Assembly (NCBI GenBank): GCA_964497535.1
Contig: CAZCCG010000002.1
Coordinates: 104,227 to 168,226, forward strand
DNA length: 64,000 nucleotides
Reading direction: 5' to 3'
Source: an uncultured Gammaproteobacteria bacterium
Lineage (GTDB): Bacteria > Patescibacteriota > Microgenomatia > Levybacterales > UBA12049
The notes under the pieces are model-generated. The model worked only from the letters and a program-made list of their open reading frames with translations, was not told the origin of the DNA and ran no database searches. This document shows, in pieces, positions 15,922-55,086 of this stretch (the stretch's first letter is position 1; every line of letters starts with the position of its first letter). Both the position numbers and the translations under genes were made by a program.

Positions 15922-15994
15922 TACTTTGTATTAAAAAAAGAGAATGAATAATGGTGTTTGTCTCAGGAATTAAGTAAGAAGTAGTTTAATTTTA

Positions 15995-16026
15995 GCTAGA
16001 CACACCCGGTGTGTTAGGTAGACACA
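15995..16026 (-). repeat. REP-like palindromic element, copy A (reverse orientation)
   Basis: CTAGACACACCCGGTGTGTTAGGTAGACACAT is the reverse complement of the GATGTGTCTACCTAG-CACACACCGGGTGTGTG unit seen in copies C and D. Confidence 0.6.
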
Positions 16027-16040
16027 TAAGGATTTTATTT

Positions 16041-16712
16041 ATGCCATACAGAAAAGAACCAATTATTGTTAATCAGATCTACCATGTATTTAATAGAAGT
16101 ATTGCCAAACAGCCAATTTTTATTAATACTAGGGATTTTAAACGAATTACGAAACTCATTGATTTTTATAGATACAAGAACCTTCCATTACGTTTTTCTC
16201 ACTTTCAACGTATATCCTATGAGGAAAAAGTGGAAATAAAGAATACATTTATGATTCAAGAAAACCTTTCTATCGATATTCTCTGTTATTGTATAATGCC
16301 AAATCATATCCATTTTTTACTACGAGTAGTCAAATCTCAAGGGATATCTAATTTTATGAGAAATTTACAAAATAGTTATTCAAAATATTTTAATACTAAA
16401 TATCATAGAACAGGTTCTTTATTTCAGGACATGTTTAAAGCCGTCTTAATTGAAACAAATGAACAGTTAATTCATGTTTCAAAATATATCCATTTAAATC
16501 CGGCTACAGCATATATGGTTGAAATCGATAAATTAGAAACTTATGAGTGGTCATCATTTAAAAGTTATCTTGTAAATGATATTAATTCTTTAATTGAAGA
16601 TAGAACAGTTATGAATTTTTTTAGAACAAAAGAAGATTATAAAAGCTTTGTATTAGACCAAGCAACCTACCAAAGAGATCTAGACAATATCAAACATTTA
16701 ATGTTAGAGTGA
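16041..16712 (+). CDS. HUH Y1 transposase, IS200-like / REP-associated tyrosine transposase (RAYT)
   Basis: HuH motif MPNHIHFLL and catalytic Tyr motif KYIHLNP. 223 aa. Flanked by inverted REP-like copies A and B. The ORF-track start at 16011 (a GTG inside the repeat) was replaced by the ATG at 16041. Confidence 0.8.
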   Translation: MPYRKEPIIVNQIYHVFNRSIAKQPIFINTRDFKRITKLIDFYRYKNLPLRFSHFQRISYEEKVEIKNTFMIQENLSIDILCYCIMPNHIHFLLRVVKSQGISNFMRNLQNSYSKYFNTKYHRTGSLFQDMFKAVLIETNEQLIHVSKYIHLNPATAYMVEIDKLETYEWSSFKSYLVNDINSLIEDRTVMNFFRTKEDYKSFVLDQATYQRDLDNIKHLMLE

Positions 16713-16715
16713 ATT

Positions 16716-16775
16716 CCTGATGTGTCTAGCCCTGCCTGCCGGCAGGCAGGTGGCACACAACGGGTGTGTGGAATT
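16716..16775 (+). repeat. REP-like element, copy B, with an embedded GC-rich perfect palindrome
   Basis: CCTGATGTGTCTAG + CCTGCCTGCCGGCAGGCAGG (a perfect 20-nt palindrome) + TGGCACACAACGGGTGTGTGG. Confidence 0.6.
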
Positions 16776-18154
16776 TAGAGGAAGTGGCGGAGGAAGTTGG
16801 CATAGCGTGGATGTCGTAATTTCTCAAAAATTTCTTCTTCTAGCTGCCCGATACGCTGCCGGTTGGTCCCAACCCGTTCTCCTACCTCTTTTCCTGTACG
16901 TTGTATACCATCCTCCAGACCGAGCCGTAATTTCAATACTTCCAAATCTCTTTTGGTCAGAAGACCTGATCCGGGTACATAATCCTCATTCGCTACACTG
17001 TGGTCGTCCAAATAGGTAAGTATTTCATCCAGTGAAACTGAGGATACTGCCTGCTCCTGAGGGAGAGGTTTTTTATCCTTAGCAAATTCCAGCAATGTAA
17101 CACCATTCACATCAAGTGGTATATCAGAAGACACAGTATAGATTTTCTCCGCTTCCTGGATTTGTCTGATTTGTTTCTCTCCAAAAGGAGCACCTTTTCT
17201 GCCAATTAACTCCTCATCAGGTACTTCTCTTCCTTCTTCAATGCTTACTCGAGTACGATATTCATTCCATCGTCTCATTTTAGCGTGCATATGGATTGCT
17301 ATACGAATGGTAGTTCCATGATTATCCCTAAATCGGCTTTGAGCTTGCCGAATCCACCAGGTGGCGTAGGTTGAAAATGCATACCCCTGCCACCGTTCAT
17401 ATAATTCCACTGATTTTATTACCCCCATTGCTCCAACCTGGGTTAACTCCTTATACATGTCGTCTGAAAGATGAAAACGGCCTGCATTTGACATAGCCAG
17501 ACGGACATTGCGCTCAATCAGTTCTTGTTCTCCTCGCTTCCCTGCTGCAATCAGATCAGACAACGCCTCCTCATCGATACTTCCCACACGGATATCGCGC
17601 GTCACAGCAATCCCATCATATATTGGCAGGGGGTCTTTGACAAATTGGCTTTTCTTTTTCTGCTCTGCGAGTTTTGCATCACGTTCCTCCTGTTTTTTCA
17701 CTAATATATACGGAGAAATAAGCTCGGAAAGGGGATATCCCTCTACGCAAACCCCAGCCAGTACGTTGTGTACCTCCTGCTGTGTATAGGGAACTTTTCC
17801 AAAATTGAGTCTATGTCCGGTCAGAATAGTTCTCCCCACAAGCCCAGCCTGCAGAGTCTGAGCAATTCTACCCCGTTCTATTTCCTCACATAGCGCTGAT
17901 TCTATTTCTTTATTCTCCAGCGGACGGATAACATCAGGATGCAACCCATAGACTCCCTGCTTTTCCATAACATATTCCAATTCCTCATGGGAAGCCCCCA
18001 GGTATCCATTTCTATCTCCTCCAATGATTGGAACTGCTTCCTCCAATAGTTCACTCTCCAAGTCATCTAATTGCTCGTAAACTTGATCATCTCCCACCAA
18101 CTCCAATTCAGCAGCATCTTCACGTGGATTTAGAAATTCATTTTCTTGTCTCAT
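16775..18154 (-). CDS. RNA polymerase sigma-70 family factor (RpoD-like, regions 1.2-4 present)
   Basis: Region 2 FSTYATWWIRQAQSRF and IRIAIHM. Region 4 LTKRDLEVLKLRLGL...VGERVGTNRQRIGQLEEEIFEKLRHP. Acidic N-terminal region. GC content is markedly higher than in the flanking genes. Confidence 0.85.
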   Translation of the reverse strand: MRQENEFLNPREDAAELELVGDDQVYEQLDDLESELLEEAVPIIGGDRNGYLGASHEELEYVMEKQGVYGLHPDVIRPLENKEIESALCEEIERGRIAQTLQAGLVGRTILTGHRLNFGKVPYTQQEVHNVLAGVCVEGYPLSELISPYILVKKQEERDAKLAEQKKKSQFVKDPLPIYDGIAVTRDIRVGSIDEEALSDLIAAGKRGEQELIERNVRLAMSNAGRFHLSDDMYKELTQVGAMGVIKSVELYERWQGYAFSTYATWWIRQAQSRFRDNHGTTIRIAIHMHAKMRRWNEYRTRVSIEEGREVPDEELIGRKGAPFGEKQIRQIQEAEKIYTVSSDIPLDVNGVTLLEFAKDKKPLPQEQAVSSVSLDEILTYLDDHSVANEDYVPGSGLLTKRDLEVLKLRLGLEDGIQRTGKEVGERVGTNRQRIGQLEEEIFEKLRHPRYANFLRHFL

Positions 18155-18215
18155 AAAAAATCATGATAACACTTGATTATTGTATTATCAAAATGGTGAT
18201 TAACAATGCTGAGGA

Positions 18216-19517
18216 TTAGACTTTGGTTACATTCATGTGCATGATATGGGGAGCTTCAATAAAATGACGGATCCTTTTGTCATGTATCTCACGGGATACT
18301 CTTTCAGCGTCAACTTCACAAGGGAATACTGTTTCTATCTGGGACCCATCTCCCATGAGGTCTACAATCGTAAAATGGACTTTATCATCTTCATCTATAA
18401 AAAAACTATACATGTCAGTACCAAATTGGTAAAACTTTCCGCTTTGCAAACCTTCAGATATATCGGAAGCTTTAAATGTTCTTAATTGTGTGTAAAATGG
18501 CGGTTCCGGCGTTAACCCTCCATTTTCATGGGATGTAGTAATACGAAACGCTGAATCTGGCGATTGCGGCATTACAATAAAGACAGTATAGTTACCAGCT
18601 TGTTGCATTCTCAGGATATTGGTATCGAGCAAATCCGCAATTGCGCGGGTTACACTTAAATTCTCCAACGAGGCTTGCTCACGGATAGTACAGGTACCCA
18701 AATCTTGCGGTAACATACCAATCGCATGTGAATGAATATAATCGATTAAAATATCCCTATCTTTTTGTTCCATCTCATCATCCACACCGCGTGTCACAAC
18801 ACGTTGTGCAATAGCATACAGGTTTTCAATAATCCTATTTTGGTCCTTAGGCGGAAGCGAGCCAAGTAAGCTGTTTTCATATGCTTCCAATTCGTCCTTT
18901 TCTTCTTCTGCAACTTCCTCATCATCTAATAGAGGATCTGCGTTATCCAGCAAAGCACGAACTCCATAATGGTCATAAAAATGGGCCAAATCCCTGACAT
19001 TTGCAGAAACTTTTCGTCTCAAAAGCACCTGTTGACGTTCATCTGAGGGTAAAGATAATAACTCTGAATCATCCGGTAATGGAGTATCTACATACACACC
19101 AAATTTCTCAAGTTCTCCAAATACCCCATAGACAGCCTGTACGTTCCGCAGTAACTGTCTATGAGGAAGCTTCATGGCAACTGACATCCGTCCCTCGTTA
19201 TCGTACTGTGCTACTTCAACCGGCGGAAGCCCTTCTCGATCATAGGGCGTAAAATAATAGGCAACTTCCTCAAGGCTTTCTAAATCTTCACCATATTGTT
19301 CAAAACGAGTACGGCTTTGTCCGGATTGGGTAAATTCTTCAAGATGCTCTACCGTACCTCTTCTCAAATCAACAATGCAGGTTTTGTCAACATAAGGACC
19401 TTTGTTCCTTAAAACAAATGCTTTTTCTCCTGTTGAGGGATCTACTACTTTCCATTCCCAATCAGAAGGTGTAGAGGGTATACCATTGGGGGGTTGATCT
19501 TCTGGTCCTCGTCCCAT
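18216..19517 (-). CDS. Hypothetical acidic protein (no recognisable domain)
   Basis: Long ORF in the GC-rich segment. The ORF-track start (MLGRHIR...) lies inside REP copy C, so it was trimmed to the ATG giving MGRGPEDQ. Confidence 0.45.
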   Translation of the reverse strand: MGRGPEDQPPNGIPSTPSDWEWKVVDPSTGEKAFVLRNKGPYVDKTCIVDLRRGTVEHLEEFTQSGQSRTRFEQYGEDLESLEEVAYYFTPYDREGLPPVEVAQYDNEGRMSVAMKLPHRQLLRNVQAVYGVFGELEKFGVYVDTPLPDDSELLSLPSDERQQVLLRRKVSANVRDLAHFYDHYGVRALLDNADPLLDDEEVAEEEKDELEAYENSLLGSLPPKDQNRIIENLYAIAQRVVTRGVDDEMEQKDRDILIDYIHSHAIGMLPQDLGTCTIREQASLENLSVTRAIADLLDTNILRMQQAGNYTVFIVMPQSPDSAFRITTSHENGGLTPEPPFYTQLRTFKASDISEGLQSGKFYQFGTDMYSFFIDEDDKVHFTIVDLMGDGSQIETVFPCEVDAERVSREIHDKRIRHFIEAPHIMHMNVTKV

Positions 19518-19599
19518 AAAAATGAATTTTAACACTTTGGTTGAGAAAGGAAAAGCTCCAATAAATTGTGCTATGTAAAGAGAATTTTCAGCAACGCTC

Positions 19600-19637
19600 C
19601 TGATGTGTCTACCTAGCACACACCGGGTGTGTGCAGG
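19600..19637 (+). repeat. REP-like element, copy C
   Basis: CCTGATGTGTCTACCTAGCACACACCGGGTGTGTGCAGG. Confidence 0.6.
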
Positions 19638-19696
19638 TAAATAAAAAGGGGTGCCGCCGACGAATCAGCTGACACCCCACGTGTGTATTGATCAAG

Positions 19697-20167
19697 TTAC
19701 TCTTGACCAGGAAATATATGCAAAGCGTAACCATGCATCGCCTTTACTCGATCACGGGCATGCTCTAACTGCTCTGCATCCGGCTCCGGGAATACCGTCC
19801 GATAACGACCGTATCGCCAGGTAACCCCATGAGAGTCCACGACTATGAACTCATGTGGCTTACCCAGATAACTGGTGTAGCGCCTGGCTGCTCCTAGTAT
19901 AAGGTTAAGCGCTTGCACGAAAGCCAACGCCAAGGCAGGATTCTGGCAGATTTCCTGCTTCTGAGCAAAGTAACGATCGTCAGGAAAATAGGACAAGAGC
20001 TCAAGCGCCCGATCCTGCTCAACCGGAGCATCCGACTCGTGTGCGATAACGCAGATAAGCTCCAATGGTATTTCATTTACCATCTGGAAAACTGCCGCGG
20101 TATCCAACGCCATGGGAACTCCTTCCAATCGCGACTGTGGACTCAATGGTCCAATCCCTCCGTACAA
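19697..20167 (-). CDS. Hypothetical protein, paralog family A (member 1)
   Basis: Shares VxxMVNEIPLELICVIAHESD and a C-terminal W(R/K)YG(G)R...VFP motif with the next ORF. Followed at its 3' end by a GGGTG/CACCC-stem hairpin plus T-run. Confidence 0.5.
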   Translation of the reverse strand: MYGGIGPLSPQSRLEGVPMALDTAAVFQMVNEIPLELICVIAHESDAPVEQDRALELLSYFPDDRYFAQKQEICQNPALALAFVQALNLILGAARRYTSYLGKPHEFIVVDSHGVTWRYGRYRTVFPEPDAEQLEHARDRVKAMHGYALHIFPGQE

Positions 20168-20248
20168 CCGCTGAGATTATATAGTGAAGAGTTAAAGAAG
20201 TCAAAATAAAAGGGTGCCATCGAAGAACGATAACACCCGTATAGTATA

Positions 20249-20686
20249 TTAGCGGAGCCCAGCACCGGCACTGGAAATGATAGCTTTTATGCGTCGTTGC
20301 ATACGAGCTGTATTCTTCTCATCCAACGCAGGAAAGACTGAAACACGTCCTCCATACTTCCAGATTTGGTCACCAACTTGTAGGGTGATCTCATGGGCAT
20401 CCCCGATATAGTTGATGTTTTGCCGTGCATGGTCAAGCCGCCGCATCATCGCGTCGGCGAAAAACTGCATCCCTGACGGGTCTTGAAGAATTGTCTCCTT
20501 CATAGCACTGTAGTGCTCATCCGGAAATAGATCCAAGAGCAACAATGTCTGTGTCGGTGTAATCTCCGTATCTGCCTGGTGGGCTATGATACACACCAAT
20601 TCCAGCGGCATCTCGTTGGCCAGATCATAAGCAGTGCGCAAAATGTGCGGTACCGGCATGACTCTGCTCCTTTCCCAACTATGCAA
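20249..20686 (-). CDS. Hypothetical protein, paralog family A (member 2)
   Basis: Carries the NEMPLELVCIIAHQAD motif, paralogous to 19697-20167. It has its own downstream hairpin terminator. Confidence 0.5.
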   Translation of the reverse strand: MHSWERSRVMPVPHILRTAYDLANEMPLELVCIIAHQADTEITPTQTLLLLDLFPDEHYSAMKETILQDPSGMQFFADAMMRRLDHARQNINYIGDAHEITLQVGDQIWKYGGRVSVFPALDEKNTARMQRRIKAIISSAGAGLR

Positions 20687-20776
20687 TACCGTGGAGATTA
20701 TATAGTGAAGATCTTATGAAGTCAAAAAAAGAGGGTGCCCCGAGTCAGACTCGGAACACCCCATGGATAACGATGA

Positions 20777-21109
20777 TCAAGGAATTTTTGGATTTGAAAG
20801 TTCGAGACGTTGTCGTCTCTCGTAATCTCCAATTAACCTACTAATTGCATGCATCTCCTCCCGGATAGGCTGGAGTGAGCAATCGATTGTCTCCTGATCC
20901 AGGTTACACCTGGCCAGAATGGGCTGTATCTCTCTAACAGCTCCATCAAGCCGCATAAACTCTTGGTAGGCGAGATGGTAATCTTGACCAGACTGAAGCG
21001 ACTGCTCCTTTCTTGTCCGAGACAGCCAGACAATTACGACGACTACCCAGATAGCGCAGAGAACGATGACTACGACTAGCGGGTTGATGAGCCACTCCAA
21101 AGAATACAT
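20777..21109 (-). CDS. Hypothetical N-terminally membrane-anchored protein
   Basis: One N-terminal TM helix (LVVVIVLCAIWVVVVIVWL). GC-rich codon usage matches its neighbours. Confidence 0.4.
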   Translation of the reverse strand: MYSLEWLINPLVVVIVLCAIWVVVVIVWLSRTRKEQSLQSGQDYHLAYQEFMRLDGAVREIQPILARCNLDQETIDCSLQPIREEMHAISRLIGDYERRQRLELSNPKIP

Positions 21110-21125
21110 GATCCCTCCCCTCTCT

Positions 21126-21395
21126 CTAGTCTTCGAGTTTTGTTGTAATCCTGTCGATGATACGATTTACGTAATCGTTCAACTTTTCCCGGTGATGATA
21201 TACCACAGGACCTACTACCACAAAGATCACACCTGTGACAATGGAAGCAAGAAGAAAATGGTTAGTGAAGACTATTGTCAGGAAATGGCCAGCTGCAGTC
21301 CCCAGTAAGACCCCAACCATCAGACATGCAATCCCACCAAAAAGCCCCACGTAGTAACTCTTGACACTGTTTGCGAAGCTGTGGAACTTTTTCAC
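21126..21395 (-). CDS. Small membrane protein (2 TM helices)
   Basis: 89 aa with two hydrophobic helices. Confidence 0.35.
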   Translation of the reverse strand: MKKFHSFANSVKSYYVGLFGGIACLMVGVLLGTAAGHFLTIVFTNHFLLASIVTGVIFVVVGPVVYHHREKLNDYVNRIIDRITTKLED

Positions 21396-21547
21396 CTCAG
21401 TCCCCTTTCAATGTACTCACCACACGGAAAACTCCGCGGGTATTGATTGAGAGTATACACTACTATGAGATAGAAATCAAAGGTGTACAGATAAAAAAAG
21501 CCTCCCCCGCGAAGCGGGAAAGGCCTGGGATGCGCCACACGGCGCGG

Positions 21548-21940
21548 TTAACAGACGAGAACTAAGAAAGCGTGATCCGCCTCCTCACGGCTGGGGAATG
21601 CCTCGATAAGGCGAGTTCCGAGAAACTCAAGATGGCTGAGTTTGCGGGGGTGACCGATTTCCTCGGCGAACATGGACAATCCCCACGACTTGATCGTTGG
21701 CTGGTAAATCGCTACAACCTCAGCAATTCCTTGCCCAGGGTCGCAGACAATCGCCCAGTGGAGCGGGGAATTTTTGATGTCCTCGACCAAGTCGAGGGCG
21801 GCCCCCCAATGACCTGTCTGAAAGACGAACTCCCGACTAGGATGGATTCCGTGCAGGATCTGGAAGAACTCTTCCGAGTAACCTACCAGGATATCCGGCT
21901 CACCGGTCTGCTTATCGGCATAAACCAGGTAAATCATCAC
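21548..21940 (-). CDS. Hypothetical protein
   Basis: 130-aa ORF in the GC-rich, same-strand gene run; no recognised motif. Confidence 0.4.
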   Translation of the reverse strand: MMIYLVYADKQTGEPDILVGYSEEFFQILHGIHPSREFVFQTGHWGAALDLVEDIKNSPLHWAIVCDPGQGIAEVVAIYQPTIKSWGLSMFAEEIGHPRKLSHLEFLGTRLIEAFPSREEADHAFLVLVC

Positions 21941-22269
21941 GTCCTCCTGCTATGGTTTTGCTGAACATCGTGCTCAAGGACTCGCTGCAAGCATCTATTC
22001 CTGCAAGAATTGAAATCCTGCGCCAGGATAAATGTTGTCGGAGCCACCCCACAAAGCAAATCATGAGGGACAGTCATCCACCGGTTGAGACCCTCTATTG
22101 TGGGAAACTGACTCAATAGCCGGATCAAAAACCGGGACGATGCAGGATCCTGCATAAGTTGGCCTATCGCTTCATACACCAAATGTGAGACCTCGTGTCC
22201 TTCATCGAGGTATTCTTGACACCGGCGAGCTGTTTCATAATTGGTATGATCTGACGCAGACATTCCCAA
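21937..22269 (-). CDS. Hypothetical protein
   Basis: 110-aa ORF with an ATGA overlap with the downstream ORF; no recognised motif. Confidence 0.4.
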   Translation of the reverse strand: MGMSASDHTNYETARRCQEYLDEGHEVSHLVYEAIGQLMQDPASSRFLIRLLSQFPTIEGLNRWMTVPHDLLCGVAPTTFILAQDFNSCRNRCLQRVLEHDVQQNHSRRT

Positions 22270-22289
22270 CTCCTTCCATCTCTGGTCGA

Positions 22290-22502
22290 TTATTTCAGTA
22301 CGTCAAAGATGACTATCACAATCATCACTACACACGCAAAAACTAACCCTCCAAATACTGAAATCAAGAACCTCTCCATAGTCTCTCCCTGGGGAGAAGA
22401 ATACGCATAACCAGTCTTGAGCATTGGCATCTTTGGGATAAGCAACCACAGAAATGCTGACCCAAACAACAATGCCACAAGAGATACAGCTACAGATGCC
22501 AT
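22290..22502 (-). CDS. Small membrane protein
   Basis: 70 aa with two hydrophobic segments. Confidence 0.3.
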   Translation of the reverse strand: MASVAVSLVALLFGSAFLWLLIPKMPMLKTGYAYSSPQGETMERFLISVFGGLVFACVVMIVIVIFDVLK

Positions 22503-22697
22503 TTCCCCTCCCTGGAGTGTTGGTTCGCTTGAACGTATTCCAAGCGAGTACCCTTCTATCTACCAAAATAAACAGAATGTCACCCGCTTGGCAAAATCAA
22601 GGTGCAATTTACTCATTTCATGACCAGAAACTGGTGAAAAATGATTGAAGAGATTATAACAAAGGAAGAATACAGAGTCAAACTATAGGATTATGAT

Positions 22698-22724
22698 GGG
22701 CGGTCGAGTCTGACTCGACCGCCC
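22698..22724. terminator. Perfect 12-bp-stem hairpin (GGGCGGTCGAGTC-TGA-CTCGACCGCCC), probable terminator downstream of the SDR gene
   Basis: Perfect inverted repeat directly 3' of the minus-strand FabG-like gene. There is no strong U-tract, so the terminator role is tentative. Confidence 0.35.
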
Positions 22725-22746
22725 AGTAGACTTGCATGTTGGGAAA

Positions 22747-23520
22747 CTATGCCATGACCATGCCGCCATCGACGTGAAGTACCTGTCCAGTAATATATGC
22801 CGCTGCGGGATCAAGGAGCAAGAATGCTACGACTCCAGCTACCTCAACCGAAGTACCAGGACGCCCGATAGGAATCATCGCAAGGATTTGATCTTTCATG
22901 CTCTCAGATACGTTGTCCCACATGGGACTTGGGATGTATCCGGGAGCGACAGCGTTGACTGTAATCCCTCGTTTGGCGTTCTCCAGAGCCGCAGACTTGG
23001 TTAGTCCGATCAAACCAGCTTTGGCTGCTGCATAGTTGGCTTGGCCGGCATTCCCGATCACGCCAACCACCGAGGTGACATTGACGATCCGTCCAAACCT
23101 ACGATGTGCCATCCTTCTGTATTCCCTATTTCCCAAGACCTCCCGGGTACAGAGGAATGCCCCTCGAAGATTGGTAGCCAGCACCGAATCCCAATCAGCC
23201 GGGGGCAGGAATGGGATAAGGTTATCGCGATTGATACCGGCGTTGTTTACCAGGAAATCAATGCGGCCAAACCGATTATATGTCCTGGCAACAAGCCGAA
23301 CCACTTCCGATTCTTTGGCAACATCAGCCTGAAGCGCAATGGTCTCACTACCAGAGAGACGGATTGACCGAGCAACCTTCAACGCCTGGGAACGATCCCG
23401 ATGATAGTGGACTACAACTGAAACTCCTTCTCGTCCCAGTGCCTCTGCAATTGCAGCACCAATCTCTCCGGAAGCTCCGGTAACCAGAGCCACTTTGCCA
23501 ATTCCCCTCTGATCTGCCAT
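22747..23520 (-). CDS. 3-oxoacyl-ACP reductase-like short-chain dehydrogenase/reductase (FabG family)
   Basis: TGASGEIGAAIA Rossmann motif, NNAG, and a catalytic S...YxxxK region (NYAAAKAG). Confidence 0.85.
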   Translation of the reverse strand: MADQRGIGKVALVTGASGEIGAAIAEALGREGVSVVVHYHRDRSQALKVARSIRLSGSETIALQADVAKESEVVRLVARTYNRFGRIDFLVNNAGINRDNLIPFLPPADWDSVLATNLRGAFLCTREVLGNREYRRMAHRRFGRIVNVTSVVGVIGNAGQANYAAAKAGLIGLTKSAALENAKRGITVNAVAPGYIPSPMWDNVSESMKDQILAMIPIGRPGTSVEVAGVVAFLLLDPAAAYITGQVLHVDGGMVMA

Positions 23521-23624
23521 GAAAAAACTCCTTGGATCTGGCCAATTGGCTTGACCTGTGCCCCTTTTTCATCAATAGAAATATACTGATGAGCAAAGTC
23601 AGAAGATTATATCACTCTTTTCAT

Positions 23625-24656
23625 CTAAATCTTTATTTTTATGAAAACGATTGTGGGAGTTTGGCCCAGTAGTCCAATTTTGTAACTACTGATCTGATGA
23701 TTGGGAAACACGTGCTTTGCATGTTTGATTAGTAAGTCAGGTTTGGATACTAATAAACATAACGCTGCCTCTGGTTGAAGGATTCTTTTGTACTCCTCAA
23801 GTGTCTTTCTATACAAATCTGTAATACTTCCTATCGCAATCTGCTTATCCCAGGGGAGATTGGAAATAGCAGCATTAAAGAAATCACTATTCCATGTAAT
23901 TTTGGTAGCATCCAAGTTTTTTATGTGATCTAATTGATCAAAACCTAACCTGCTTAAGTTGTTTTGGCTAATCGTTACACTTTCCGGGTCACTATCTCCT
24001 CCATACACACTGTTACCCATAAAGAATGCTTCACAAAGGACTGTCCCGCTGCCACAAAAATTATCGACAACCTTTAGGTTTTGCTTTCCTTCTGTAACCA
24101 TCACTACCATTGCTGCCGCTACTGTTGCTTTCAAAGAACCTGGCTTGGATACTGTTTTGTAGCTGCGATGATGTAAGCTTTCCGGGGTCAACCGCACAGA
24201 AATAAAAAGCTTTGATCCATCGATAAAGATACGGATGTCAAAATTGCTGTGGTCAAACGCACGATATTCCCATTGGTATTTTTGAGAAATTTCCTGTGCT
24301 GCGGTTCTGGTTATTTCTTTTGAATCCAACTTATTTTTGGCGCTACTGATTGTCAGGGAAAACGTCTGAGGATCCAGTGTTCGTACCTGTTGCAGCATAC
24401 TTCTGGTTTTGCGTAAGTCCAAGCCATTTATTATTTCCAAAAGTTGCGGCAACGCAGTTACCTCTTCATCAGATGCGAGAAGTATTCCAATATCATCAAC
24501 CGTTCTTAACCGAACCAGAGTTTCAAAAGAAGCATGTGTTTTAAATACAATCCGTTTGTCCAAAACCTCAAGGATATGTGCATCTTTTATATACGATACA
24601 ATTTCCTGTTCAACAATTTGTTCCAGGCCTTTGGTGCAATACGCAATGTAGTTCAT
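23625..24656 (-). CDS. THUMP-domain class I SAM-dependent RNA methyltransferase (RlmL/Trm11-like)
   Basis: N-terminal THUMP-like region. MTase motif I DNFCGSGTV and motif IV NLPW. Confidence 0.6.
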   Translation of the reverse strand: MNYIAYCTKGLEQIVEQEIVSYIKDAHILEVLDKRIVFKTHASFETLVRLRTVDDIGILLASDEEVTALPQLLEIINGLDLRKTRSMLQQVRTLDPQTFSLTISSAKNKLDSKEITRTAAQEISQKYQWEYRAFDHSNFDIRIFIDGSKLFISVRLTPESLHHRSYKTVSKPGSLKATVAAAMVVMVTEGKQNLKVVDNFCGSGTVLCEAFFMGNSVYGGDSDPESVTISQNNLSRLGFDQLDHIKNLDATKITWNSDFFNAAISNLPWDKQIAIGSITDLYRKTLEEYKRILQPEAALCLLVSKPDLLIKHAKHVFPNHQISSYKIGLLGQTPTIVFIKIKI

Positions 24657-25423
24657 GAAGAGAGAATAAATTTGTTAACCACATCAACTACTCCGTCTTC
24701 TGTTACAGAAGGTGCGATATAATCTGCAATTGCTTTAAGATCCGGTACCGCATTACCCATAGCAACTTTGAGTCCACATGCCATCAGAAGCGGAAAATCA
24801 TTATAACTGTCTCCTACTCCGATGACCTCTTCTTTTTTCAGGTTCAACTGTTTTAAAACCGCCGCAATACCTTGCAGTTTTGTAGCTTTTACATGAGTAA
24901 TATTTATTCCATATTTGTGAGGATTTTTATGATGTATTTTTTGTACAGAAATATTGTGAAGATGAGAAAGTTTTTTGGCAAGATCATCTATTTTTTTTGA
25001 AGAATAATGTTCATAGGTAAAAATCATATAGGCTTTTTGGAAAGGATCTCCCTTTTTGAAGTAATTATTTATAAATGACCTGTCAAAGGTTTTTTGTTTG
25101 AGATAGAACGGTATTTTTTCCTGATCTAAGAGGTTAATAATGATTTCCGCATCCCGTAAGTCTAACGGTTGCTCATACATAACTTCTTTACTGGAAAGTT
25201 CTATGACTTGTGCGCCATTATTTACGATAACAAATCCTTTTTTTAATTGTAACTTTTCCAGAATATTGAGAATAAACGGATAAGAACGCCCTGTTACCAA
25301 ACAGATTTCTAACTTTTGCTGTGCTTTGCCAATAGCTATTGCTACGGCATCTGAAGGAAGAGCATTATAGTCATAGGGAATCAATGTCCCATCGACATCA
25401 AGCATGATTGCCTTGTATTTCAT
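24653..25423 (-). CDS. HAD-IIB Cof-type phosphatase
   Basis: DVDGTL motif I, GDSYND motif, and Cof-like length. Very low GC. Confidence 0.8.
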   Translation of the reverse strand: MKYKAIMLDVDGTLIPYDYNALPSDAVAIAIGKAQQKLEICLVTGRSYPFILNILEKLQLKKGFVIVNNGAQVIELSSKEVMYEQPLDLRDAEIIINLLDQEKIPFYLKQKTFDRSFINNYFKKGDPFQKAYMIFTYEHYSSKKIDDLAKKLSHLHNISVQKIHHKNPHKYGINITHVKATKLQGIAAVLKQLNLKKEEVIGVGDSYNDFPLLMACGLKVAMGNAVPDLKAIADYIAPSVTEDGVVDVVNKFILSS

Positions 25424-25526
25424 AGGGGAATTGTATCACAGGAATTTGAAGCCAAAGGGGTATGGATTAAAAAAGTGCCGGGAAGATTGCTCTTCCCGGC
25501 TTTATAGAATCGGACGTTGTGGACGA

Positions 25527-25805
25527 CTAGCCGTACATGAACTTCATCACCAATAGCGCAAGTGATTGAAACGCAATAAAGATGTTTGTTATCACAATTG
25601 GTGGACTCTTGACAGCCTTTGTACCGTAGATCATCCAGCAACAACTCTGAGTGAAGAATAGAAGCAAAGTCCAAGGAGACAAATCTTTTGTCTCGCTGGT
25701 CTGCAAAACCTGGATAAGCTGAGGTGTAAGCATAAAGATGGCCAATATAGACCCTATATAGCCAAACGTATGCCACGAGATCAGCCGCTTCATCTTTCCC
25801 TCCAC
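25527..25805 (-). CDS. SemiSWEET (PQ-loop/MtN3 family) sugar transporter
   Basis: 92 aa, three TM helices, PQ motif in TM1 (LTPQLIQVLQT). Matches the SemiSWEET layout. Confidence 0.6.
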   Translation of the reverse strand: MEGKMKRLISWHTFGYIGSILAIFMLTPQLIQVLQTSETKDLSPWTLLLFFTQSCCWMIYGTKAVKSPPIVITNIFIAFQSLALLVMKFMYG

Positions 25806-25939
25806 TTAACGTGCGATGGGGGGAATTATAACAAAAAACATGAGATAAAACAAACTATGGGGTTCTTTAAGGGTTGGGGTTTCAAAAAATAAAAAACCCC
25901 CGGTACCCAAAAGGTACCGAGGGCGTCGTCTTGCAGAGA

Positions 25940-26611
25940 TTACTGTCCCTGCCCGCACTGGCGGAAATAGTTGTTGCGGAGCTGCCGCAACCTTGGAAAT
26001 ACAACCATTTTCCACCATGGCGCTGCCGCTGCATCGAGCTGTACGGTGTCCTGAACCCAGGTGAGAAACTCTTCCTCTGATGCGTTCACAGAGAGCTTTC
26101 TTCCCGGTGAAACGAGCGTCGAATCCTCTGCGCCTATGATGCGCAGATTCCATGCTCTCTTCTGCGGATCCTCCTCCATTGTGAAATATATCTGCAGGTA
26201 CTTGGTAGAGGAAAGGGGTTGAATCAGAGTCGTGGTAGCCTCGCCGTAATTTCCCCCGGGGATTGGCATGGGCCACACTCCGGATATAGTTCCCGGCGGC
26301 ATATACGGTGCTACTTCCAGTCCCGCCAACAACGCGGCCTTGAGTTGCCGTTGTGCAGCAGAGGTGGCTGTGGGGATACCATTTTCCCCAACGGAGAAGT
26401 AGATGTCCAGACAAATGTCGCGGGAGTTATCCCACAACTCAATGAGCTGGAAGTGTACCTCCACTTCTTCCACAGACACCTGGATCCGCTCGTCTGAAAA
26501 AGCTATCGAGACTGCGGTCCTCCACTCCCGACACGCTTGCTCCCTAATGTCATGATGGGCCATGAAGTACCGGTACAAGTCGGGCAAACACTTCGCGATG
26601 ATACGCGGCAT
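25940..26611 (-). CDS. Hypothetical protein (GC-rich segment)
   Basis: 223-aa ORF with ordinary amino-acid composition. The overlapping alternative-frame ORF 25806-26414 is R/G-rich and was judged spurious. A hairpin plus T-run lies 3' of it at about 25875-25920. Confidence 0.45.
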   Translation of the reverse strand: MPRIIAKCLPDLYRYFMAHHDIREQACREWRTAVSIAFSDERIQVSVEEVEVHFQLIELWDNSRDICLDIYFSVGENGIPTATSAAQRQLKAALLAGLEVAPYMPPGTISGVWPMPIPGGNYGEATTTLIQPLSSTKYLQIYFTMEEDPQKRAWNLRIIGAEDSTLVSPGRKLSVNASEEEFLTWVQDTVQLDAAAAPWWKMVVFPRLRQLRNNYFRQCGQGQ

Positions 26612-26845
26612 GATCTGCTCCTTTTCTGGGCTTCACCTTTGTCTACTCCGAATCGTCGGAGTGAAGTGAAACTGCCCCATCAAATAAGAATGTGTTCTTA
26701 TCTCATAGGGTAGTATCACTTAACAAAAGGAAACAATTGCAGTAATCTTAATGTGCAAGAATTTGAAATGCTACAAAATCGTTTTTGAGCCTGCAGAGTA
26801 TAGCAAAAAAGAATATGAAAGTAAACTATAGGGCAAAATATTTTC

Positions 26846-26875
26846 TTGACAAAGGCTATGGGCTCATGATATAGT
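26846..26875 (+). promoter_or_regulatory. Sigma-70-type promoter with extended -10 (TTGACA-18-TGaTATAGT)
   Basis: TTGACA at 26846-26851, TG at 26867-68 and TATAGT at 26870-75. Confidence 0.45.
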
Positions 26876-26954
26876 AATCTCATGAACAAAGCACAGCAAT
26901 TAAATAGAAGACCAATAACTTCCTAACGGGGAGGTATTTGTCGTGTGTACAAAA

Positions 26955-26974
26955 CTCCCCCTGGGAGTTTTTTT
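26955..26974 (+). terminator. Intrinsic terminator hairpin (CTCCC-CCT-GGGAG + T7) in the leader upstream of the paralog-B pair; an upstream GGGGAG could form an alternative pairing
   Basis: Stem-loop followed by TTTTTTT about 80 nt downstream of the predicted promoter and about 110 nt upstream of the ATG at 27083. GGGGAG at 26927-26932 could alternatively pair with CTCCCC. Confidence 0.4.
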
Positions 26975-27082
26975 GTTGTGGAAAAGCACCTTAAAACTTA
27001 TAGGAGGCAGTGACCTCAGGAAGATTATAAGTCTTTCTGCGGGTGCTGCTTACCTATACTATAGCAGCGCCGGGAGAGGTAG

Positions 27083-27736
27083 ATGGACGACCGTTCCTAT
27101 GCGAGAGTACATGTTCATGGAGACAAATCTATGGAAGGAGACAAAGTATCACTGGTGAGTACCTCACCCCTTGGGCCCCGCCTCGAAACCAACATCGGGT
27201 ACTGTCCCTTTGTACGCGAGGTTGAATACTGCGCCTTCTTTGGACAAGTACCGTTGGGTGAATACTATTTGGTATATACCACACAAACCGGTATCCACCA
27301 GATCGATACGGCTTTGGAAGCTTTTATCGATCTGCCGAAGTTCCGGCTGGATACCGCTCGTGTGGTACCGGTAGTACCTTTCTCCGCCGAAAAAGACCTC
27401 GTAAAGGCAATGCGTGAAGCACAACAAGACCTCATGCATTGTCTTGTGTTGTCTCCGAGCATCAAGTATGGAGTACTTTGGTACGCTCGCAGTGTACTTA
27501 CGTCTCGATTGGCTCAAGCTGAAAAAGAGTTGGAGCGTCGGGGAAAGCAACAACTGGGAGGTTTGACAACCGAGCAACAGAGAGGCCTGCAGGAACTCTC
27601 CGAATGTGTTCTGCGGAGTATGAAAACCTTGGAGCTCCATAGCGCACTTGACTTCTACCGATTGCTTTCGATCCTCTGTAACGAAAGTACTACGGTAGCC
27701 AAAGTTATGCGGATAATCTATCCTGCACTCCGCTGA
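27083..27736 (+). CDS. Hypothetical protein, paralog family B (member 1)
   Basis: Shares SLVSTSPLGP, ELERRGKQQLGGLTTEQQ and DFYRLLSIL with the next ORF. Confidence 0.55.
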   Translation: MDDRSYARVHVHGDKSMEGDKVSLVSTSPLGPRLETNIGYCPFVREVEYCAFFGQVPLGEYYLVYTTQTGIHQIDTALEAFIDLPKFRLDTARVVPVVPFSAEKDLVKAMREAQQDLMHCLVLSPSIKYGVLWYARSVLTSRLAQAEKELERRGKQQLGGLTTEQQRGLQELSECVLRSMKTLELHSALDFYRLLSILCNESTTVAKVMRIIYPALR

Positions 27737-27750
27737 GAAGTACACACCGA

Positions 27751-28467
27751 GTGTATGCAAACACTAGAAGCACTGGAGGAGAAATGGACGAACATTGGGC
27801 AAGTGTGTGGGGCAAAACCTACAAAGATGAGGTAGTTGTACACGTTGGAAGAGGAATGAAAGGAGCCCGTATTTCGCTCGTCAGCACTAATCCGCTTGGG
27901 CCGCATCTCCACGCATACGTTGAGCAATTCGGTTCTCTGAGAGGAGAAGGAGGAGGGTTTGGCGCCGTCTTTGAGAACGTACCCGCCGGCGAGTACTGGG
28001 TTGTTGGGATGCACTTGGGACACTGCATCATTGAGGCAGGAGTAGATGCCAAACTTCTACCTGGGGATATCCCGGATAACATCGTACTGCTAGATCCCGG
28101 ATACCAGGATTCTCATCTGCGTAAGGCCATCTCCGCTGCATGTAACAACCTCAAGAAACTTACCGGCGTCTCCTGGGGTATGAAATATGCAGCACTGTTG
28201 TATACTCGCAGGCAGTTTGCACCCGAGATGAGTGCAGCTGAAAAGATCCTCGAACGGCGGGGCAAGAACCATCTTGCCGGTCTCACAACAGAGCAAGAGA
28301 AGATACTCGGTATTATTTCCCAAACTGTTGTGGAGAATATGACAGAGCTTGGGCTGTGTCGGGCAATCGATTTCTATCGGTTGCTCTCGCTTCTTTACAA
28401 AGGAAGGAAAGACAGCGCCAAAATCCTGGAGATGCTTCATCCGAATCAAGGTAATTCGGTGGAGTAA
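27751..28467 (+). CDS. Hypothetical protein, paralog family B (member 2)
   Basis: Tandem paralog of 27083-27736 (SLVSTNPLGP, ILERRGKNHLAGLTTEQE, DFYRLLSLL). An imperfect hairpin plus T-run follows at about 28473-28516. Confidence 0.55.
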   Translation: MYANTRSTGGEMDEHWASVWGKTYKDEVVVHVGRGMKGARISLVSTNPLGPHLHAYVEQFGSLRGEGGGFGAVFENVPAGEYWVVGMHLGHCIIEAGVDAKLLPGDIPDNIVLLDPGYQDSHLRKAISAACNNLKKLTGVSWGMKYAALLYTRRQFAPEMSAAEKILERRGKNHLAGLTTEQEKILGIISQTVVENMTELGLCRAIDFYRLLSLLYKGRKDSAKILEMLHPNQGNSVE

Positions 28468-28524
28468 AACCATCATGCCCGGTTTCCCATTCGTGGGGAG
28501 CCGGGCTCTTTTTATGGGATAATC

Positions 28525-28560
28525 CCGATGTGTCTACCTACCACACACCGGGTGTGTGTA
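28525..28560 (+). repeat. REP-like element, copy D (abuts tRNA-Val 3' end)
   Basis: CCCGATGTGTCTACCTACCACACACCGGGTGTGTGTA. Confidence 0.6.
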
Positions 28561-28568
28561 AAAAGGAG

Positions 28569-28640
28569 TGGACCCGAGAGGATTCGAACCCCTGACATCT
28601 GCAATGTGAATGCAGCGCTCTACCACTGAGCTACGAGTCC
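28569..28640 (-). tRNA. tRNA-Val (anticodon CAC)
   Basis: Cloverleaf by eye: acceptor GGACTCG/CGGGTCC, D-arm GCTC-AGTGGTA-GAGC, anticodon arm CTGCA-TTCACAT-TGCAG, T-arm with TTCGAAT loop. No encoded CCA. Confidence 0.85.
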
Positions 28641-40396: not shown

Positions 40397-40885
40397 ATGC
40401 ATAAAGTAATACTGGCACTGGGATCAAATGTTGGGAATAAACAGGAAAATATTAGCAAAGCTGTTGATTCATTACACATCCTATTGGAAGATATTCATGT
40501 TGCGAATTTGTATCGTTCACATGCTGTTGGATTTACCGAGCAGGATGATTTCATAAATACGGCAGTGAGGGGATATACTAATCTATCTCCTCAAGAGTTA
40601 TTGGAGAGAATAAAAAAACTCGAAAAAAAACTGGGAAGGAAAAAGAGATTCCGTTGGGGACCACGAGAAATAGACATTGATATTATTTTTTATGATGATC
40701 AAATAATTCAGACAGAACTGTTGGAACTACCCCACCCCAGAATGCATGAGCGGGATTTTGTCCTCCAACCATTAACAGATCTCCAGCCACAGTTACTCCA
40801 TCCGGTTTTGAATAAAACAGTCCAAACTCTTTTGGAAGAACTACCGCCGGAGTCTCATTCAATCGTGGAAAAACTCTACAGCTAG
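40397..40885 (+). CDS. folK: 6-hydroxymethyl-7,8-dihydropterin pyrophosphokinase
   Basis: [10 protein letters not shown] start, [12 protein letters not shown] and [14 protein letters not shown] motifs. Confidence 0.85.
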
Positions 40886-40907
40886 ACACATCCGGTGTGT
40901 GCTACAA
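40882..40907 (-). repeat. REP-like element, copy E (short form, reverse orientation) between folK and folE
   Basis: GCTAGACACATCCGGTGTGTGCTAC; it overlaps the folK stop codon. Confidence 0.5.
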
Positions 40908-40917
40908 TCCCAGAGTT

Positions 40918-41475
40918 ATGAAGCGGACGAAAATTCAACATCTTATATCTCAATTACTCAAGGAGCTCGGGGAAGATCCAGGACGTGAAGGACTTAAAAA
41001 GACTCCAGAACGTGTTGAAAAAATGCTGGAATATCTTACCAGTGGCTACAAAACTTCTTCCAAAAAAATCGTGAACAATGCTATTTATACCCACGAAGTG
41101 AGCAATATGGTGATTTTGAAAAATATTGAGCTTTATAGTCTATGCGAGCACCATATGCTCCCTTTTTTTGGTAAATGCCATATCGGATATATCGCAAATG
41201 GCAAAGTATTGGGAGTAAGCAAACTTGCCAGAATTGTCGATATGTATTCCAGACGGCTACAAATACAGGAACGGCTCACTGAGCAAATTGCCCATGAAAT
41301 TATGGAAGTAACTCGACCCTTGGGAGTAGGGGTAGTAATTGAAGCACAACATCTGTGTATGATGATGCGAGGGGTGGAAAAACAAAATTCAGTAATGGTA
41401 ACATCATCGGTTTTGGGAAACTTCCGTACCCAACAGGCAACCCGGGAAGAATTCCTCACCCTCATCCACAGATAA
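40918..41475 (+). CDS. folE: GTP cyclohydrolase I
   Basis: [16 protein letters not shown] and the QERLT motif. Start trimmed to the ATG at 40918; the ORF track begins at a GTG inside REP copy E. Confidence 0.9.
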
Positions 41476-53574: not shown

Positions 53575-54315
53575 CTACTCCGTGGGGGTTATCCCATATA
53601 CAGTAAGCGGCGTACCTGGATTATTATCAGTAGCGTAGGTTGTAAAGCCTTCAGTCACTGGACCTGCCCAATCAAAGAGTTTTTTAGCATTTTCATTGCT
53701 GATATTAATACAGCCATGGCTCATCGGATGACCAAAATTATTATGCCAATATGCTCCATGTAATCCAAATCCCTGAGTTTTGGGTACTTCATTATTATAG
53801 AAATACATCGTATATTCTACATTTGGTAAATTGTAATAGGTTCCAATAGCCGGATTGCCACCCGCCATACGGGTACTACGAAGCTTTATCCATATCGTAA
53901 ATTCACCTGCTGGTGTCGGATACCACTTCCCTGAGGATATCGGGAAATCCATATCCAAAATTCCATCATCATAGGCATACAAATGTTGCGAGGAAAGATC
54001 AACGTAAATATGTTTTTTTGAATTATCCGTTTGTGCTCCTAAAACATTAGGCATAGTATCGGTTTGAGCAACAATTAAAGGCGCTGCTACTTTTTTCCCC
54101 ATAAATATTCCTTGGGTACTTGTTTGTGGTTTCCCACTGAGATCTTTTATACAGCTGATAGAATTTGCGCAGGAGGCAACTAACGCTTTCGGAGGAGTAC
54201 CATGAAGCACTGTCAAAACACCAATACTGAGTAGAGCAAGGATTCCAAATACCCACGCACGAGACAGTGAGGTACGCTTTGTTTTTCGCCGGATACTATG
54301 ATGTTTTTTGGGCAT
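53575..54315 (-). CDS. L,D-transpeptidase (YkuD fold)
   Basis: Catalytic HG...SHGCI motif (GFGLHGAYWHNNFGHPMSHGCINI), with an N-terminal TM anchor. Confidence 0.8.
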   Translation of the reverse strand: MPKKHHSIRRKTKRTSLSRAWVFGILALLSIGVLTVLHGTPPKALVASCANSISCIKDLSGKPQTSTQGIFMGKKVAAPLIVAQTDTMPNVLGAQTDNSKKHIYVDLSSQHLYAYDDGILDMDFPISSGKWYPTPAGEFTIWIKLRSTRMAGGNPAIGTYYNLPNVEYTMYFYNNEVPKTQGFGLHGAYWHNNFGHPMSHGCINISNENAKKLFDWAGPVTEGFTTYATDNNPGTPLTVYGITPTE

Positions 54316-54429: not shown

Positions 54430-55086
54430 ATGATACTAATACCACTTTTTTCAGCTATAACTTTGGTCTTGACAGGACTCATGTTTGGGCCTATAAACCC
54501 CATGCAACACCCTCAAAGTAGGGTTCTTTCAACACATCAAATGTCACTTACCGACCGGTATCAGGTACCAAGTGTGAATGATGTGTTTAAAGATAATATC
54601 CTTCTTAATATCGCCTATATGAACGGGAGAGTAGCCTCCCCCAGAGACATAAATTGGAATAGCCTGAATAAACCCTTCCAAACTCATTTTATACTGCAAC
54701 CCGGTGAGATGTTTGCTTTCCATGATGATGTACTTCCTCAGTTTGAAGGCAAAGTAACCAAAACAACCAAAGCTCATTTTAATGCCCAGGAAGGATTCAA
54801 ATCCGATGGATATTTATTTGGAGACGGGGTATGTCATTTGGCATCATTAATTGGTTGGGCAGCACGTGACGCACAACTGGATGTTGTAGCACCAACAAAT
54901 CATGATTTTATGACAATTCCGGAAATTCCTTCCAAATATGGCGTCTCTATTTACGCAGCTTCGGGAGAATCATCAGTGAGTGAACAACAAAATCTCTATA
55001 TCAAAAATAATTTTAAAAAACCGATCGCATTTGTATTTGACTATAAAAACGAGCAATTAAAAGTTTCGGTCCTCCGACTGGACTAA
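54430..55086 (+). CDS. VanW-like protein
   Basis: GDGVCHLASLIGWAARDAQLDVVAPTNHDF matches the GGGVCQVSSTLYNAAL...NH core of the VanW domain. Confidence 0.55.
   Translation: MILIPLFSAITLVLTGLMFGPINPMQHPQSRVLSTHQMSLTDRYQVPSVNDVFKDNILLNIAYMNGRVASPRDINWNSLNKPFQTHFILQPGEMFAFHDDVLPQFEGKVTKTTKAHFNAQEGFKSDGYLFGDGVCHLASLIGWAARDAQLDVVAPTNHDFMTIPEIPSKYGVSIYAASGESSVSEQQNLYIKNNFKKPIAFVFDYKNEQLKVSVLRLD

Follow-up and report, generated by a model that had tools for sequence, protein, structure and literature searches.

The 64-kb window analysed here (positions 104,227 to 168,226 of contig CAZCCG010000002.1, forward strand) comes from a genome of the Levybacterales, a lineage of the Candidate Phyla Radiation (CPR), and contains a gene for a Y1 HUH protein that is bracketed by inverted copies of a short hairpin repeat. 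We consider it probable that the gene and its repeats form a unit like those called TIRtrons and REPtrons, in which a domesticated, probably single-copy Y1 HUH endonuclease/ligase for single-stranded DNA (ssDNA) is kept together with its cognate DNA sites. This reading draws on features that were observed directly, namely the family of the protein with its catalytic residues, inverted repeats on both sides of the gene, covariation within the repeat, dispersed repeat copies, and a promoter consensus in the upstream flank. A first-pass annotation of the same DNA had called the unit a REP-RAYT module, meaning a family of repetitive extragenic palindromes (REPs) with its REP-associated tyrosine transposase (RAYT), a description that stands in part, as set out below. 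The gene lies as follows.

16041-16712, + strand: RAYT-like gene for a 223-aa Y1 HUH protein with the motifs NHIHFLL, FQ and YIHLNP and a YEWSS tail

The true start of this gene is the ATG at 16041, and a GTG at 16011, inside the upstream copy, is a spurious start supplied by the repeat. The HuH and catalytic Tyr motifs that had been read from the open reading frame (ORF) are both present, and Pfam Y1_Tnp (PF01797) matches the protein with 47.4 bits (cut-off 23; E 2.6e-12); no further domain appeared in a Pfam scan at E up to 0.1. Among 50 homologues no change is seen at H91, Y149, W170 or S172, and H89 is nearly invariant (at least 90%); the family consensus reads PNHxHFLL, SLFQ, RYIHLNP and YxWSS, the middle residue of NHxH being variable (I/V/F/Y/L). 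The protein scores 53.3 bits with the NCBIfam model REP_Tyr_transpos (NF047646), below the equivalog cut-off of 80, as do three further family members (29-58 bits), compared with 179 bits for E. coli RayT; with the NCBIfam IS200 model it scores 17.7 bits against a cut-off of 55. An AlphaFold (AF2) model (pLDDT 91), in which the C-terminus is helical (residues 188-221), has as its top match among solved structures E. coli TnpA_REP with a REP hairpin (4er8; E 1.2e-6, TM 0.73 over the whole target, 188 columns), and the TnpA structures of IS608 and ISDra2 rank behind it (TM ~0.6, ~140 columns). The likeness to TnpA_REP is seen by fold, because searches of PDB sequences with the single protein and with a profile reached only ISDra2 TnpA, and that weakly. 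A word-indexed search returned 855 homologues, the best of them 50-63% identical and 218-230 aa long, and an exhaustive profile search gave 1139 clusters at 50% identity (E up to 1e-30). Those homologues that bear names are Candidatus Levybacteria, in agreement with the CPR-like host proposed from the letters alone.

Given its motifs (NHxH, FQ, YIHLNP, WSS), the profile comparisons and its predicted fold, we place the window protein in the RAYT superfamily rather than with classical IS200/IS605 TnpA. The comparison of these two groups suggested in the first-pass annotation favours the former, both by model score (53 bits for REP_Tyr_transpos, 18 for IS200) and by best structure; the repeats recur in the window and the protein is not a classical TnpA, which were the two points on which that annotation depended. 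It is accordingly very improbable that the unit is an autonomous insertion sequence of the IS200/IS605 type that transposes as a whole. Such an element would carry a Y1_Tnp domain, and the unit is indeed placed differently here than in three related Levybacteria, with neighbourhoods that vary among distant homologues. However, the 64 kb hold one copy of the gene, its ends are inverted instead of lying on the same strand, the locus is syntenic in three genomes, the IS200 hidden Markov model falls far below its cut-off, and the Tyr motif is YIHLNP, not Y-x3-Q (PMC6006769). Nor was a TnpB ORF noticed beside the gene, in an inspection that included no search aimed at TnpB.

The repeat is about 40 nt long and consists of a head (TCCnnATGTGTCTAsCTA) followed by an imperfect palindrome, or hairpin, CACACACCGGGTGTGTG. 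Six copies lie in the window, of which four are full or gene-flanking (A-D) and two are partial (E and F); scores are those of a covariance model (CM) trained mainly on element copies of other genomes.

15993-16035, - strand: copy A, upstream flank of the gene; CM 32 bits; fold -4.4 kcal/mol, z -2.2
16714-16772, + strand: copy B, downstream flank, 2 nt past the stop codon; fold -15 kcal/mol, z -3.05
16731-16750, no strand assigned: nested palindrome, a perfect 20-nt CCTGCCTGCCGGCAGGCAGG, unique in the window and a separate element
19598-19633, + strand: copy C, full element, TCCTGATGTGTCTACCTAGCACACACCGGGTGTGTG; CM 33.9 bits; fold -11.5 kcal/mol, z -3.46
28523-28558, + strand: copy D, full element; CM 46 bits, the best in the window
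40879-40905, - strand: copy E, partial, a hairpin without the 5' head; CM 11.8 bits
53507-53552, + strand: copy F, a variant; CM 9.7 bits; fold -9.4 kcal/mol, z -2.76

Copies A (-) and B (+) bracket the ORF in inverted orientation with their heads on the gene side, as had been described. The count of six copies, all at gene boundaries, is likewise upheld by CM and pattern matches (partial for E and F), every copy being intergenic or lying across a stop codon. The head pattern has 8 matches in the window against 1.24 expected, a number reached in 0 of 100 shuffles, and the palindrome has 5 clear sites and a doubtful one at 27741 against 0.06 expected. As ssDNA the copies fold better than shuffled sequences (z -1.6 to -3.5), which answers favourably the question of stem-loop folding raised earlier. 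The CM found nothing convincing beyond A-F over the 64 kb, and no new copies were present in about 10 kb to the left and 1.4 kb to the right of the window (Logan contig extension). Dispersed copies were scored by the CM, an 11-mer recurrence test being too noisy in AT-rich DNA. The doubtful site (27741-27757, TACACACCGAGTGTATG), between two + strand ORFs, is a hairpin only, headless and without a CM hit, and was left uncounted; it may be a relic or a chance match.

The individual copies differ in completeness and setting. Read on the - strand, copy A is TCCTTATGTGTCTACCTA-ACACACCGGGTGTGT-CTAGCTA, its head occupying 16015-16028 and its hairpin 15999-16015, with another head-like unit at 15993-16006. 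In copy B the head TTCCTGATGTGTCTAGCC is followed by the 20-nt palindrome and then by the family hairpin CACACAACGGGTGTGTG (16754-16770), with CM scores of 14.3 bits (head part) and 10.9 bits (hairpin); the copy runs up to the stop codon of a convergent sigma-factor gene (16775-18154, -). Copy C, TCCTGATGTGTCTACCTAG followed by CACACACCGGGTGTGTG, has a - strand gene on either side and stands some 80 nt ahead of the true start (19517) of a 433-aa gene. Copy D, 94% identical to C, lies between the 3' ends of a 238-aa gene and a tRNA-Val gene (28568-28640, -), and its minimum-free-energy fold is an alternative hairpin of head and 5' arm. Copy E reads GTAGCACACACCGGATGTGTCTAGCTG on the - strand, its 3' arm continuing into a head-like GTGTCTAGCT, and occupies the 32-nt gap between folK (40397-40885) and folE (40918-41475), the TAG stop of folK being inside the repeat. 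Copy F, just 3' of a YkuD gene (53575-54315, -), has a canonical head TCCTGATGTGTCTAGCTA and then a different hairpin, CTGTCTAC-N10-GTAGACAG, with head-like arms. The repeat also creates false GTG starts, at three places (16011, 19619 on the - strand, and 40897) and not the two first reported; the real starts are at 16041, 19517 (-) and 40918, so that three ORFs are artificially extended, and the sequence MLGRHIR... occurs twice. The perfect palindrome in copy B had been correctly identified, and the same exact 20-mer occurs at two of the loci from other genomes: L006 (453-472), from another Levybacteria genome, where it is in frame inside a RarA/MgsA gene and encodes SLPAGRQ, and L014 (3605-3624), from another Patescibacteria genome. 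This palindrome has the look of a further conserved element, one able to sit inside genes.

Comparison across genomes indicates that protein and repeat belong together. A metagenome scan supplied 80 further loci with homologues 42-60% identical to the window protein, giving 81 loci for comparison. In 71 of these, the upstream flank, once reverse-complemented, scores higher against the downstream flank than every shuffled control (median score 44, versus 17 shuffled), and wherever CM hits in both flanks were inspected the upstream one was on the - strand and the downstream one on the +. The layout is constant: TCCnnR is followed by a head of about AGGTGTCWA, a CTA-containing spacer, and a stem of 5-9 bp closed by a loop of 3 nt. 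The stem differs in type from genome to genome (CACAC/GTGTG, CACCT/AGGTG, CACCC/GGGTG, AACAC/GTGTT, ACGAT/ATCGT and others), and its arms are always complementary. In a model-derived alignment of 129 copies, 87.6% of the hairpin cells are paired, double changes occur at all 8 pairs, and covariation reaches 0.516, compared with 0.195 in shuffled and at most 0.16 in slid controls. Furthermore, the head repeats the 3' arm and is therefore complementary to the 5' arm (85.7% paired; covariation 0.239 versus 0.081), so that two mutually exclusive hairpins are possible. Because the head is unpaired in the model, this second covariation is less circular than that of the hairpin itself. Protein identity is also higher within a hairpin type (54.1%) than between types (48.4%), a difference reached in 0 of 2000 permutations, and this pattern fits co-inheritance or co-evolution of the protein with its site.

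Further regularities were apparent outside the stem. An alignment of 80 copies has a conserved CTA 2-4 nt ahead of the stem and no GT[AG]G at the 5' foot of the palindrome. Symmetric copies (head-hairpin-head'), recognised as overlapping + and - CM hits, are common in other genomes (for example L022, L047, L040 and L091). Of 76 elements, 11 carry a tandem duplication of the 3' arm and the 8-12 nt after it, compared with 11 of 3000 random positions (0.4%); on the element's distal side these units number two or three (L014 1414-1500, L037, L039, L043, L058, L083, L085 and L093) and may be a footprint of cleavage and rejoining, or of slippage.

The upstream copy commonly contains a promoter. TTGACA is found in 54 of 79 distinct upstream regions as against 4 of 78 downstream; correspondingly, 34 of the 37 aligned upstream copies have GTGTCAA, equal to TTGACAC on the gene strand, whereas downstream and dispersed copies have GTGTCTA or another sequence. 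The full consensus, TTGACA followed after 16-18 nt by TAnnnT, is present in 46 upstream regions, and in 22 loci the -10 box ends 6 nt ahead of the ATG (upstream flanks within L017-L096, such as L017 9961-10003), so a leaderless mRNA is predicted. The window's own copy A is of the 'TCTA', or downstream, type; it is 5 nt from the ATG region, does not have the TTGACA -35 box, and yielded no promoter-like site facing the gene in a promoter scan. We set aside a role at the RNA level and prefer one at the DNA level, because an Rfam scan of the window returned tRNA only and the upstream hairpin would fall outside the transcript predicted from the embedded promoter.

These promoter data bear on the possibility that transposase-type activity has been lost, leaving elements that serve as operators of a domesticated DNA-binding protein or as hairpins that stabilise or terminate transcripts, with the dispersed copies forming a small regulon or being relics. 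The upstream copy does overlap the -35 box in those 54 of 79 loci, copies A and C have the same orientation ahead of genes, B, D and F fall at the 3' ends of convergent genes, and direct repeats of the arm motif recall arrays of binding sites. We nevertheless regard this as distinctly unlikely: the invariance of H91 and Y149 and near-invariance of H89 argue for retained catalysis, no terminator-like site (0, with no T-run) is found among these hairpins, and identical elements occupy unrelated loci in distant genomes. In addition, a solo element of CCACCT type stands right after tRNA-Lys in L010 (8079-8123), where the flanks of the resident gene are of ACATACC/GGTGTG type. Such a foreign element fits spread better than conserved regulation, and it suggests that more than one element type per genome is possible.

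The distribution of the unit and of its dispersed copies was also informative. In three Levybacteria genomes the neighbourhood of the orthologue is kept, with inverted copies of a related element flanking the gene, and the shared order is DinB-family polymerase, Mrr, DUF2079, Maf, YkuD, a 211-aa gene, the RAYT-like gene, and then tRNA-Lys or VanW. A strict 30-nt pattern of head plus hairpin found 1-3 exact non-flank copies each in three other CPR genomes (two unclassified Patescibacteria and one CPR2 bacterium); these copies are nearly identical to C and D, and one of the three genomes has a 49%-identical homologue that is flanked likewise. Genes for tRNA were seen roughly 50-170 nt from the unit or from a dispersed copy in L004 (10766), L006 (10753), L019 (1574), L040 (1960), L047 (10845) and L073 (1505), and at 28568 in the window. 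A dinB gene lies about 3 kb from rayT in E. coli K-12 (L098/L099) and a DinB-family IMS gene 4-8 kb from the Levybacteria orthologues (L003-L010), a proximity that is probably coincidental.

The density of copies is relevant to the first-pass description, which implied a canonical REP/REPIN-RAYT system, that is, a RAYT like those of Groups 2 and 3 maintaining a large genome-wide population of REP singlets and doublets that the window would sample. Several features recall such a system, including the inverted flanking copies, the placement of copies at gene boundaries and often between convergent genes, symmetric elements elsewhere that resemble REPINs or 'double foot' REPs, and TnpA_REP as the best structural match. 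Yet the four family members that were scored fall below the RAYT cut-off of 80 bits (29-58, compared with 179 for RayT), profile alignment with E. coli RayT attains a probability of 55%, and no GT[AG]G marks the hairpin foot, the conserved triplet being instead CTA, 2-4 nt off. By provisional counts, copies are also few, with 6 in 64 kb, none in the next 10 kb, about one extra per 50 kb around homologues, and the 1-3 exact copies in each of the three other CPR genomes. Thus, what survives of the original description is a RAYT-like gene with inverted ends and recurring repeats, while membership of a canonical REP-RAYT pair, although it can be entertained, is unlikely.

The TIRtron/REPtron-like reading can be phrased as a sequence of steps, in which binding, cleavage and mobility are expected by analogy with the protein family. 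The site would be about 40 nt long and comprise TCCnnR, a head X (~AGGTGTCWA), a spacer of about CTA, a 5' arm X', a 3-nt loop and a 3' arm X, with two such sites flanking the gene in inverted orientation, heads gene-side. The protein would bind the hairpin in single-stranded DNA, such as that at a replication fork, and the HUH histidines and Tyr149 would cut and rejoin DNA near the hairpin, so that an element might occasionally be copied or recombined into other intergenic sites (C, D, E and F in the window). The alternative hairpin of head and 5' arm could have a pairing role like that of guide and cleavage site in IS608, or could be a second binding site. In most genomes, protein bound at the TTGACA-N17-TAnnnT promoter in the upstream copy would also regulate expression of its own gene, probably by repression.

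A bolder version would make this a CPR-wide, self-regulating ssDNA recombination system whose specificity is set by complementarity between head and hairpin arm, guide-like as in IS608, and which shapes genome architecture rather than merely spreading repeats. Hints in this direction are the head-arm covariation, the duplication of the 3' arm in 14% of elements, the position of copy F, and a segment of higher G+C content bounded by copies B and D and ending at a tRNA gene (the latter two are described below). We hold this extension to be rather improbable.

Several observations weigh against our preferred reading. Copies E and F match the CM in part, at about 10-12 bits. The copies in the covariation seed had been chosen for a perfect stem of at least 5 bp and a head resembling the arm, the CM-derived alignment is fitted to the model, and shuffle-based scores can be inflated by related sequences; similarly, plain shared ancestry could account for the association of protein with hairpin type. 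Synteny is lost beyond the closest clade (30 more distant loci), and the whole unit may therefore move. Copy number is low, with about 15 non-flank copies in 718 kb around homologues, many of them 1-2 kb from the gene, or roughly one extra copy per 50 kb. The upstream copy A has no promoter that would account for expression of the window gene. Finally, the C-terminal helix-turn-helix (HTH) domains of the closest published group, subclass 2.1 (Bac_DnaA_C, HTH_23, HTH_28), have no Pfam match in the window protein.

Elsewhere in the window, the arrangement of genes and copies suggests past rearrangement. YkuD (53575-54315, -) and VanW (54430-55086, +) are divergent and lie 37 kb from the RAYT-like gene, although in related Levybacteria they are its usual neighbours, with YkuD preceding the unit. 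Here copy F takes the expected place of the gene beside YkuD, in the opposite orientation to copy A. Both this orientation and the missing promoter of copy A could be explained by an inversion between element copies, and the arrangement is compatible with an inversion between A and F that also removed the promoter of the gene. Moreover, the region from 16.8 to 28.5 kb (16775-28520) has a G+C content of 45-50%, compared with 34-38% on both sides. Its left edge is copy B and its right edge is near copy D and tRNA-Val, so that B and D stand in direct orientation at its bounds, and copy C is within it. Its genes encode a sigma-70-like factor with a long N-terminal extension, an SDR protein, a methyltransferase, a HAD hydrolase and several proteins without a Pfam hit. 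This segment could have been acquired or rearranged as a block. A prophage or integrative element was also considered as its source and set aside; the recognisable genes (sigma factor, SDR, methyltransferase and HAD hydrolase) are ordinary. The 433-aa genes beside the unit in the window and in L003 were likewise considered as orthologues and proved unrelated on comparison.

Three other repeats were noted in the window. A 52-nt direct repeat, 85% identical between its copies (20167-20218 and 20688-20739), follows two small tandem genes on the - strand; on that strand each copy has a GC hairpin with a T-run and then TTGACT-N17-TATAAT, and would be a repeated terminator-promoter module. Three tandem 24-nt units are present within a 985-aa ORF (33332-33403), and a TTCTAC repeat with a 10-nt period lies between divergent genes (1785-1828).

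RAYT and TIRYT systems have so far been characterised mostly in Proteobacteria, Cyanobacteria and Bacteroidetes, and their largest group (Group 1, or subclass 2.1) is of unknown function and reported without REP-like structures. A large sister family in the reduced genomes of the CPR, with a simple and strongly covarying pair of protein and site, provides hundreds of natural hairpin and head variants as a ready data set on how enzymes read DNA sites; the gene and its elements appear to occur as a unit in hundreds of CPR genomes besides this one. There is also a practical consequence for gene calling in CPR genomes, where the element makes false GTG starts and most family members appear leaderless. 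In the literature library searched, we found no paper tying RAYT, TIRYT or REP elements to CPR/Patescibacteria; complete genomes were the basis of the published surveys, as of the definition of subclass 2.1.

Among known systems, IS200/IS605 TnpA proteins (IS608, ISDra2) share with this family the HUH/Y1 fold and the recognition of a hairpin, the latter predicted here, and the segment 5' of our hairpin, complementary to the hairpin region, recalls the guide and cleavage-site rule of IS608. Unlike those elements, the CPR unit has inverted instead of same-strand ends, a single copy, and Y..NP in place of Y..Q. The REPtron of E. coli (Nunvar 2010; Ton-Hoang 2012; 4er8) is similar in having a single-copy gene with inverted hairpin repeats that flank it and also occur elsewhere between genes, and E. 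coli RayT shares the motif YIxxNP..WP(F/W)S(S/T) after the catalytic Tyr. In RAYT/REPtrons as described by Nunvar 2010 and Bertels & Rainey 2011, the repeat flanks its gene in inverted orientation, as it does here, is dispersed in high copy number and carries GT[AG]G at the 5' foot, and the gene is single-copy and inherited vertically. The CPR unit departs from the E. coli REPtron in having no GTAG foot, a protein 58 aa longer, and repeats that probably number in the tens where E. coli has hundreds.

The nearest relatives appear to be the TIRYTs of TIRtrons, named for their terminal inverted repeats (TIRs; Di Nocera et al. 2013, PMC3733652), which are equivalent to RAYT Group 1 (Bertels et al. 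2017, PMC5581495) and to TnpAY1 subclass 2.1 (Quentin et al. 2018, PMC6006769). Judged by profile comparison, the family is much closer to this group than to canonical E. coli RayT. In hhalign its profile matched a TIRYT-type protein with 99.3% probability (score 130, E 4.8e-20, 29% identity), compared with 55% (score 34, 19% identity) for RayT; the comparator is a 230-aa 'transposase' from a P. aeruginosa plasmid, flanked by inverted repeats with GGGGACAG. The published motifs of subclass 2.1 (Table 1, PMC6006769) are NHVH/NH[YF]H, W[EQ]/FQ, YIELNP/Y[IV]HLNP and an SS tail, and the window family has this set. Like TIRYT/subclass 2.1 proteins, its members are about 220-240 aa long with NHxH, FQ/W[EQ], Y[IV]HLNP and a serine-containing tail; as in TIRtrons, inverted repeats bracket the gene at a fixed short distance. 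The head GGTGTCWA (consensus AGGTGTCAA) resembles the published TIR motif GGGGWSAS, matching it at 6 of 8 positions. Copy number is low to moderate, as in Group 1, where flanking 16-mers average about 12 per replicon. The CPR family is only 25-29% identical to the TIRYT comparator, from which it differs by about 31 inserted aa (residues ~40-75) and by a C-terminus that cannot be aligned, and it differs from TIRtrons in its CPR host and in the promoter embedded in the upstream copy. Moreover, subclass 2.1/Group 1 is reported with terminal inverted repeats and without REPs (PMC6006769, PMC3733652), whereas the CPR repeats hold a well-defined, covarying hairpin with a 3-nt loop. A covarying hairpin in a subclass 2.1-like system, the complementarity of head and arm, and an embedded leaderless promoter may be features new to this group.

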